A program made the position numbers and the translations under genes. Positions 15,370 to 16,850 of a DNA stretch of 64,000 nucleotides are shown here, piece after piece. The stretch spans positions 496,001 through 560,000 of the forward strand of contig JANJGN010000087.1 in the NCBI GenBank assembly GCA_026770705.1. The letters run 5' to 3'. The first letter of the stretch is position 1. The number at the start of each line of letters is the position of its first letter. Below the pieces are notes generated by a model. It saw only the letters and a program-made list of their open reading frames with translations, was not told where the DNA came from and made no database searches. Source of the stretch: Isurus oxyrinchus. Lineage: Eukaryota.

Positions 15370-16850
15370 CCTTTACTCGAATCTTCCAGCTACGAAGGCC
15401 GACACACCATCCGCCTCCCCCATTGACCACTGCACTAGCATGCTTACCCTCAGTGGCCGGTCCACATACCTCTTTGCCCACTCCCCTCACTCAATTCAAA
15501 GCCATTCAGATAACGATCTGCCCTCCCATCCCTGCGACCAGAGTGGACAAACTCACATCCGTCCCCAGCACACTGCTTCTGGCATGCAGCATCCCACCCA
15601 CTCACCCTGTCCAAATCACACCGAAGCATCTCCGCATCCTCCACACAGCTCACCCTCCCAACCAGAACCATGTCATCTGCAAATTCGGAGACACCACACC
15701 CAGCTCCCTCATCCAAACCATTGACACACACCCTGAATAACCTGGATGGCAGCAACGACCCCCGCAGCACTGCTCTATTCACTGCCTGCCATTCGGTAAA
15801 AGACCTGCTCATGACCGCTCCATAATTCTTGCCTGCCAACCAGTCTTCTGTCCGTCTCTGACTCTGTCCGATTCTGCCACTGCTTCCCAAGGGCTCACCG
15901 ACCAAATATTCCAAATTTAACTCCTGAATTCTCCACACCACCGATGTCAGCCCGACTGGTCAACAACTCCCTGCGTTCTCTCTAACTGCCCTTCCAAATT
16001 TTGGCGTTCCGTTAGTTAAACTCCAACCCGCAGGAACTTTACCCGACTCTATAGAATCTCAGAATATGACCACCAGTGCATCCACCACTTAAAGGGCGAC
16101 CTCCCCAAGTACACTGGGACGTAGACAATCAGGCCCCAGGATTCCACTGACCCTCAATCCCATCAATCCCTCCAACACCATTTCTGTGCCCATACTGGTT
16201 CCTTACAGCTCCTCCCTTACACTCTAGACCCTGTTCCCCAACATTTCTGGCACGTCACCCACGTCCTCCTTTGTGAAGTCAGACCAAAGGTATCCATCTA
16301 GTTGGTCAGCCACCCCTTCGTTCTCAATCATAAATCACCTGTTTCTGACTCTAAGAGACCTGCACATGTATCCACCAACCCTTCCCTCCTCACATTCTAT
16401 AGAAGCGTTAACAGTCAGTTGATATTTTCCCGCAAGTCTACTCGCACTCTCCACCCTCGCCACTTAATCAATCCCCTGGTCTTCCCCTGATGAACTCTAA
16501 AGTGCTCCCAATCCTCATGTCTTTCCCTTTTTCCCCTCCAACTTGTCTGCCGCTTCCTTGGATTCAACACTATCCCCAATTTCCCCTGTAAGCCATGGAT
16601 CAGACACCATTGCTATCTTCCCCTTGCGCCAGACATGAACAAACAAGTGTTGAAGCCACAAAGCGCCCCCCAAATATCCGTCACTGCCCATCCACCGTCA
16701 TCCCTCCAAACAACGTTTCCAAATCCAGCATAGGCAGGCCGCACCCCAAACCATCGCAGTCTTCTCCATTATGTTTCAGGACCCTTGTTTCAGAACAAAA
16801 TACGTCACTCTCTGTCCTCATGAAAAATTAACCATGTCATAGTCACTTAA
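15370..16850 (-). mobile_element. CR1 LINE ORF2 fragment with dense sense-strand A-to-G substitutions
   Basis: ORF 15450-15941(-) reads GSLLPSRLFRVCVNGLDEGAGCGVSEFADD..LRCDLDRVSGW..CEFVHSG, matching the CR1 RT pattern GSVLGP.LF.IYINDLD....ISKFADD. The upstream part continues to ~16850. Confidence 0.85.

Follow-up and report, generated by a model that had tools for sequence, protein, structure and literature searches.

The window, by which we mean the whole 64,000-nucleotide stretch of DNA analysed here (positions 496001-560000 of contig C87), contains SRCR-domain exons at 27996-39706 on the minus strand (Pfam SRCR match at 39254-39706), which we take to be CD163/WC1-like. These exons belong to a unit that occurs in about 20 copies on five small contigs (C47, C62, C87, C114 and C303). 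Its minimum extent, 9815-41549 (at least 32 kb), was checked in four of the 19 other copies, where homology starts at 9815 and reaches as far as 41549, and it also carries the insertion that is the main subject of this report. Between the SRCR exons, about 25 degenerate 37-nt units are arranged in tandem (31226-32268). On the plus strand, a young retroelement with a 528-aa open frame lies at 51642-53842, flanked on either side by inverted repeats of about 200 nt and 91-95% identical to dispersed copies. It has no Pfam match at 1e-3 and is presumably Penelope-like; members of the same family have inserted at another position in two of the duplicate units (L177 and L180). Finally, frames at 8020-8487 (minus strand) and 59319-59819 (plus strand) resemble, by eye, fragments of seven-transmembrane receptors and have no Pfam match.

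The insertion occupies 13975-16856 on the minus strand, is 2.9 kb long and sits at one target site. Along the minus strand it reads as segment A, which carries the changes described below, followed by inverted D, inverted C, E and the flank. Since four older paralogues (L051-L054) run from 16856 straight into ~13975 and so join both flanks directly, the 2.9 kb arrived at a single site. Alignment of the flanks to these empty sites gives an overlap of 5 nt in L051 and of 21 nt in L053 and a 3-nt gap in L054, so that a target-site duplication is not demonstrable from them and any target-site repeat is degenerate. The target site itself lies among degenerate, strongly strand-skewed repeats (16860-17600) with units about 250 nt apart, which are also present in the empty-site paralogues.

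Segment A (15341-16856, minus strand) is an internal ORF2 fragment of a CR1-type LINE that extends from the end of the endonuclease to past the reverse transcriptase (RT). The earlier note had placed a CR1 element at 15370-16850, and homology indeed spans ~16856-15341. At 73-74% identity, the focal DNA matches positions 3399-4407 and 4596-5123 of the near-intact family copy L042, with a 189-nt deletion at 15858 whose ends are not GT..AG on either strand, which rules out splicing as its source. The L042 ORF (619 aa) has Pfam matches to RVT_1 (2.7e-33) and Exo_endo_phos_2 (1e-7), and the presence of AP-endonuclease and RT domains in this ORF2 places the family among the non-LTR retrotransposons, while a Pfam search with the 169-aa frame of the focal copy matched no family. 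The name CR1 is provisional and follows the label of the earlier note and the motifs. The family is large, as an unedited 26-mer matches 6,794 places in the 4.98-Gb assembly. Segment A ends at family position 5123 of ~5699, without a 3' UTR or tail of its own, and the 3' end of its family is present within the insertion only in inverted form.

This inverted 3' end is segment C (14147-14370, plus strand; L042 5477-5699). Segment D (14371-15334, plus strand), likewise inverted with respect to A, corresponds to sequence found on the 3' side of this LINE family in old duplicated units elsewhere in the genome and is collinear with C in loci L058-L070. Segment E (13975-14143, minus strand) comprises the 3' terminus and tail of another LINE family, related to that of segment A (about 64% identity); it is 89% identical to many dispersed copies, adjoins the right flank and would be the priming end of the insertion. 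Ends of the kind produced by target-primed reverse transcription (TPRT) are thus present, with the tail of E at the right flank and A starting inside ORF2. Neither the junction between A and inverted D nor that between inverted C and E was found outside the duplicates, nor was an unedited donor with either junction, among the 40 scored matches per search. As it is tailless and enclosed in a chimera, segment A differs from a plain CR1 insertion. The order of the segments is inconsistent with simple twin priming on a sense CR1 RNA, and descent of A from the old units that combine CR1 and D is rejected, the derived alleles shared with them (5-14 of ~185) being near chance. Within one such much-duplicated small-contig unit (L058-L070, L157-L161) there is an old near-full-length LINE copy.

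To read substitutions, the reference was restricted to columns in which at least 70% of 20 dispersed family copies agree, and the focal state was the majority of 20 near-identical duplicates. On the sense strand of segment A, 170 of 512 A's (33%) have changed to G, while T>C affects only 20 of 340 T's (6%; Fisher p=2e-23). The remaining transitions stand at 26/426 (G>A) and 21/208 (C>T), every type except A>G lies at 2-10%, and each transversion type lies at 2-7%, with 36/512 transversions at A and 23/340 at T (p=1.0). The window copy alone gives the same picture (A>G 163/512, T>C 20/337). The asymmetry also persists in the tabulation by strand that the earlier note had proposed, with CpG-prone contexts removed (145/416 vs 16/225). 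Changes are spread along the segment, with A>G densities per 100 nt of 24-50% in the interior bins and 20-25% in both end bins. The outermost changed A's are at 16838 and 15366, so that the skew stops at the ends of the fragment, a point that the earlier note had proposed to test at the element boundaries.

The same note had quoted a minus-strand stretch of the RT (15740-15670), which reads as it claimed. In real family copies the corresponding motif is LFTIYINDLDEG(T/I)K(C/Y)NIS(K/R)FADD, and comparison with these copies at each codon bears out the claims of the note about single residues, since A>G accounts for every one of I>V, Y>C, I>V, D>G, T>A, K>G, N>G, I>V and K>E; in this motif most duplicates have two G's more than the window copy. 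Its remark that the plus strand is C-rich is likewise correct, although the changes account for this richness only in part, since the sense-strand GC skew is already 0.32 in unedited family copies and rises to 0.44 in the focal segment. From the former to the latter, G increases from 28% to 37%, while C and T are about constant.

Codon positions are hit alike, both by A>G (40/33/34%, p=0.34) and by the other changes (13/16/15%), with no preference for third positions in either class. Therefore, selection had no part in any of the changes, and the family majority can fairly stand for the ancestral sequence. Moreover, because A>G ignores codon position and 131 of the 170 changes are non-synonymous, no active subfamily master can have carried them.

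The skew is a property of this one copy. Among 52 other family copies, comprising 20 search matches, 12 old copies and 20 further ones (17 from the list of the unedited probe and three from the degenerate probe described below; L068 was left out because it contains too little CR1), all 52 have A>G rates of 0.6-6.4%, and the smallest p for an excess of A>G over T>C is 0.010. The 12 old copies, mostly on small contigs, are diverged by 11-16%, which is close to the 14.7% of non-A>G background in the focal segment, so that they serve as a matched control. The flanks are unskewed (A>G 10/241 and 6/248; T>C 17/230 and 23/324), and no comparable skew was found in other repeats of the window. The co-inserted segments, read on the minus strand, are unedited as well, with A>G 3/54 and T>C 5/59 in C, 4/87 and 6/78 in the 14950-15334 part of D, and A>G 1/41 in E.

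These controls bear on a slow regional process, either GC-biased gene conversion or an asymmetry linked to transcription or replication in a fast-evolving gene cluster. The region is indeed fast-evolving or old, given the 14.7% of non-A>G divergence, similar to family copies on small contigs and above the 2-6% of those on large contigs, and the SRCR gene lies on the same strand as segment A. However, T>C reaches only 6%, the other weak-to-strong changes number 40 against 88 strong-to-weak ones, and the variants that post-date the duplication are AT-biased (A>G 18, T>C 11, G>A 49, C>T 34). Together with the clean flanks and repeats, this substitution balance refutes both gene conversion and regional strand asymmetry, and we regard such a process as highly improbable. 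As the later changes are AT-biased and the controls unskewed, the skew represents one old burst. The divergence of small-contig copies as such may reflect either faster substitution in those clusters or a very slowly changing master.

The probability of change depends on the preceding base. With T in the 5' position, 49 of 86 A's have changed (57%), followed by A (70/158, 44%), C (24/88, 27%) and G (22/130, 17%; p=1e-9), each step of this order having a one-sided p<0.05; relative to 5' G, the odds are 6.8 for T, 3.9 for A and 1.9 for C. Triplet rates range from 0.70 in TAA to 0.12 in GAG. Among the six positions from -3 to +3, only -1 has an effect, the rates by 3' neighbour being 42% for A, 35% for G, 33% for T and 27% for C (p=0.21, or 0.16 adjusted for the 5' base). 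Ordinary A>G changes in family copies are flat across contexts (1.4-2.0%), and in four independent old copies they follow no ADAR order (T 7.3, A 5.0, C 5.3, G 8.4%). In the accessible text of PMC3113232, both human enzymes, ADAR1 as well as ADAR2, follow the order U>A>C>G, the 5' base being dominant and 3' G preferred less strongly, and the editing of long duplexes has a ceiling of 50-60%, above the 33% seen here. According to the portions of PMC5625713 available, 5' G is depleted in all animals tested, while the 3' preference is for G in mammals and reptiles and for A in amphibians and invertebrates. The 5'-neighbour order of the focal changes is therefore ADAR's published order, and the preference that the earlier note had suspected is borne out.

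A burst of this kind might also be ascribed to an error-prone polymerase (eta, iota or an RT starved of dTTP) at work in a templated insertion. In its favour, polymerase eta prefers A or T on the 5' side, the chimeric structure of the insertion points to template switching, and changed A's show slight clustering at adjacent sites (72 against an expected 60, p=0.011). Nevertheless, A>T and A>C are not in excess, the 3' G preference expected from slippage is absent, 5' C ranks over 5' G (p=0.048), and the segments of the insertion that would have been copied together with A are clean. Moreover, an excess of 27 percentage points across 1.5 kb is, to our knowledge, far beyond known polymerase error rates. 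We thus consider a polymerase origin very unlikely.

The DNA search that retrieved the focal segment yielded 20 places at 95-100% identity and 20 dispersed loci at ~74%. Twenty nearly identical copies could at first sight belong to a G-rich CR1 subfamily or be an artefact of assembly. However, kilobases of flanking sequence are common to the G-rich copies (at least 32 kb in those checked), which means one insertion duplicated with its neighbourhood; the 20 copies are a segmental duplication and not a subfamily. Their mean pairwise divergence is 3.1%, and G is found in essentially all duplicates at 139 of the 170 changed sites. The A>G changes predate the ~20-fold duplication. A subfamily would also have to carry changes that break conserved RT residues and show no codon bias. 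In addition, three G-rich 26-mers, searched with 2-3 mismatches, match only duplicates (19, 20 and 7 matches), as opposed to the thousands of places matched by their unedited counterpart. As regards the assembly, part of the focal stretch is present in 20 sequencing runs from seven studies, with no RNA run among those listed, and four of the runs were compared over window positions 15250-17000. In organism A, the part from 15613 to 17000 is matched, with 45 differences, by a contig of a second study that has the G-rich state. In organism B, contigs from three studies cover most of the stretch at 3-7% differences and have it too, their commonest difference being plus-strand T>C, that is, an extra sense G (e.g., 18 of 90). 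The G-rich state is therefore genuine and predates the divergence of the two species, and the shared flanks, the codon pattern, the 26-mers and the agreement of independent runs rule out both subfamily and artefact, which we rate as next to impossible. Thus, the refutations that the earlier note had named (strand-symmetric changes, transversions or spread into the flanks, a subfamily already G-rich, an assembly unsupported by reads) have all failed.

Given which strand, base change and neighbours are involved, that only segment A is affected and that there is a single insertion site, an RNA that contained segment A was probably hyperedited by ADAR and reverse-transcribed into the germline once. 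In such a sequence of events, ADAR would have deaminated about one third of the adenines of A while this segment was double-stranded. A LINE RT primed at the tail of E would then have copied E, C and D unchanged, gone on to copy A, reading inosine as G, and halted inside ORF2. The simplest route would be a read-through hairpin RNA with A as the 5' arm and inverted D and C, followed by E, as the loop, its partner arm being placed 3' of the priming site. With A as arm and the others as loop, this arrangement accounts for which parts were edited, and a partner arm beyond the priming site would not have been copied. A switch of template from one RNA to another, or one insertion followed by a second, would also be compatible with the structure. 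An enzyme of this type could be supplied by the genome, which has several loci with A_deamin domains (28 exon matches, left unassigned among ADAR1, ADAR2, ADAD and ADAT). Against this explanation stand the lack of a complementary partner (none was found for A inside the insertion, and an old or lost donor elsewhere would be missed), the lack of a significant 3' G preference, unlike the weak one of human ADAR1, the want of a demonstrable target-site duplication, the missing tail of segment A, which leaves the route of integration conjectural, the unedited state of L1 RNA in cell culture (see below), and the fact that the event is single.

The same neighbour order is predicted if ADAR instead deaminated the DNA within an RNA:DNA hybrid, which could have been an R-loop formed in place or involved the cDNA of an antisense transcript, with no edited RNA being copied. 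The plus-strand order C, D, inverted A could then be the product of twin priming on an antisense RNA. Under this scheme, however, C and D share the cDNA strand of A, yet both are unedited, and the LINE tail sits at the other end, in E. Moreover, an R-loop formed in place has no reason to halt at the internal junction at 15341, and DNA-strand editing of such hybrids is weak without mismatches. Hybrid editing is accordingly very unlikely, and reverse transcription of an edited RNA is retained as the best explanation.

How often such copies arise was approached with the G-rich 26-mers and with a degenerate probe in the 3' part, which gave three matches, all to ordinary copies (A>G 1.5-3.2%). The further A>G-clustered copies that the earlier note had proposed to look for were thus not found by these probes, whose joint sensitivity in simulations is low, at 17% for edited copies that are young and at 8% and 3% for those diverged by 8% and 14%, respectively. 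From the 6,794 family matches and the 12% sensitivity of the matching probe it follows that young hyper-edited copies make up roughly less than ~0.4% of the family, while old ones are barely constrained. The note's inference of a hyper-edited LINE RNA integrated in the germline is therefore supported, with the qualifications that the insertion is not a plain CR1 copy and that, with no second edited copy, it represents a rare accident rather than evidence of a routine defence by ADAR against LINEs. This rarity agrees with work in cell culture, where, as far as the available text of PMC5224506 and PMC8677026 goes, ADARs bind L1 RNA, and ADAR1 and ADAR2 restrict L1 without editing of the L1 RNA that was sequenced.

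Whether LINE RTs can more generally write the ADAR hyper-editing of read-through hairpin RNAs into the vertebrate germline is a proposal to which we give somewhat less than even chances. If it holds, genomes would contain sparse and so far unmined A>G fossils in non-LTR repeats, and these would record the activity and sequence preference of germline ADAR in extinct ancestors; at the focal locus, the edited arm and the unedited loop would still outline the fold of the RNA. The locus would also represent a route from RNA editing to heritable DNA change, with ~140 excess substitutions made in one step, and a datable read-out of germline ADAR preference. Moreover, it provides a simple filter for screening other genomes (sense A>G, 5' U>A>C>G, no codon bias) and a warning that edited copies can pass for separate subfamilies or older insertions. 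No function of the insertion is implied.

So far, editing-derived hypermutation preserved in genomes has been documented for LTR elements in the case of APOBEC and for a small number of exogenous retroviruses in that of ADAR, and a literature search for an ADAR-type case in germline non-LTR elements found none, most subscription journals lying outside its coverage. Against this background, the ADAR pattern of editing in a germline-fixed LINE sequence is statistically very clear at the present locus. The accessible part of a review (PMC8586724) lists A>G-hypermutated RAV-1, avian leukosis virus and HTLV-2/STLV-3, attributed to ADAR and rare. The focal segment shares with these the clustered A>G changes, the attribution to ADAR, a reverse-transcribed genome and rarity. 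However, they are exogenous LTR retroviruses, whereas the focal segment belongs to a non-LTR LINE, is fixed in the germline, is shared by two species, is part of a chimera and has been amplified by segmental duplication. Regarding cellular RNA, CR1 predominates among the hyper-edited repeats of chicken, and the RNA of elephant shark undergoes heavy editing, according to the portions of PMC2873906 and PMC5625713 at hand; such hyper-edited repeat RNA resembles the focal segment in its dense A>G changes and depletion of 5' G. Nevertheless, its signal is confined to RNA, with no such excess in DNA traces according to the accessible text of PMC2873906, while the focal signature is heritable DNA. 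The focal segment is the A>G counterpart of the APOBEC-edited ERVs as described in the available text of PMC4866542, where a single strand-biased burst of one substitution type is likewise frozen in a retroelement and read against its family. In those elements the changes are G>A, produced by C-to-U editing of cDNA, and the screen, as presented there, covered LTR elements only, was filtered for G>A and left LINEs out, whereas the focal LINE shows A>G with a 5'-neighbour rule.
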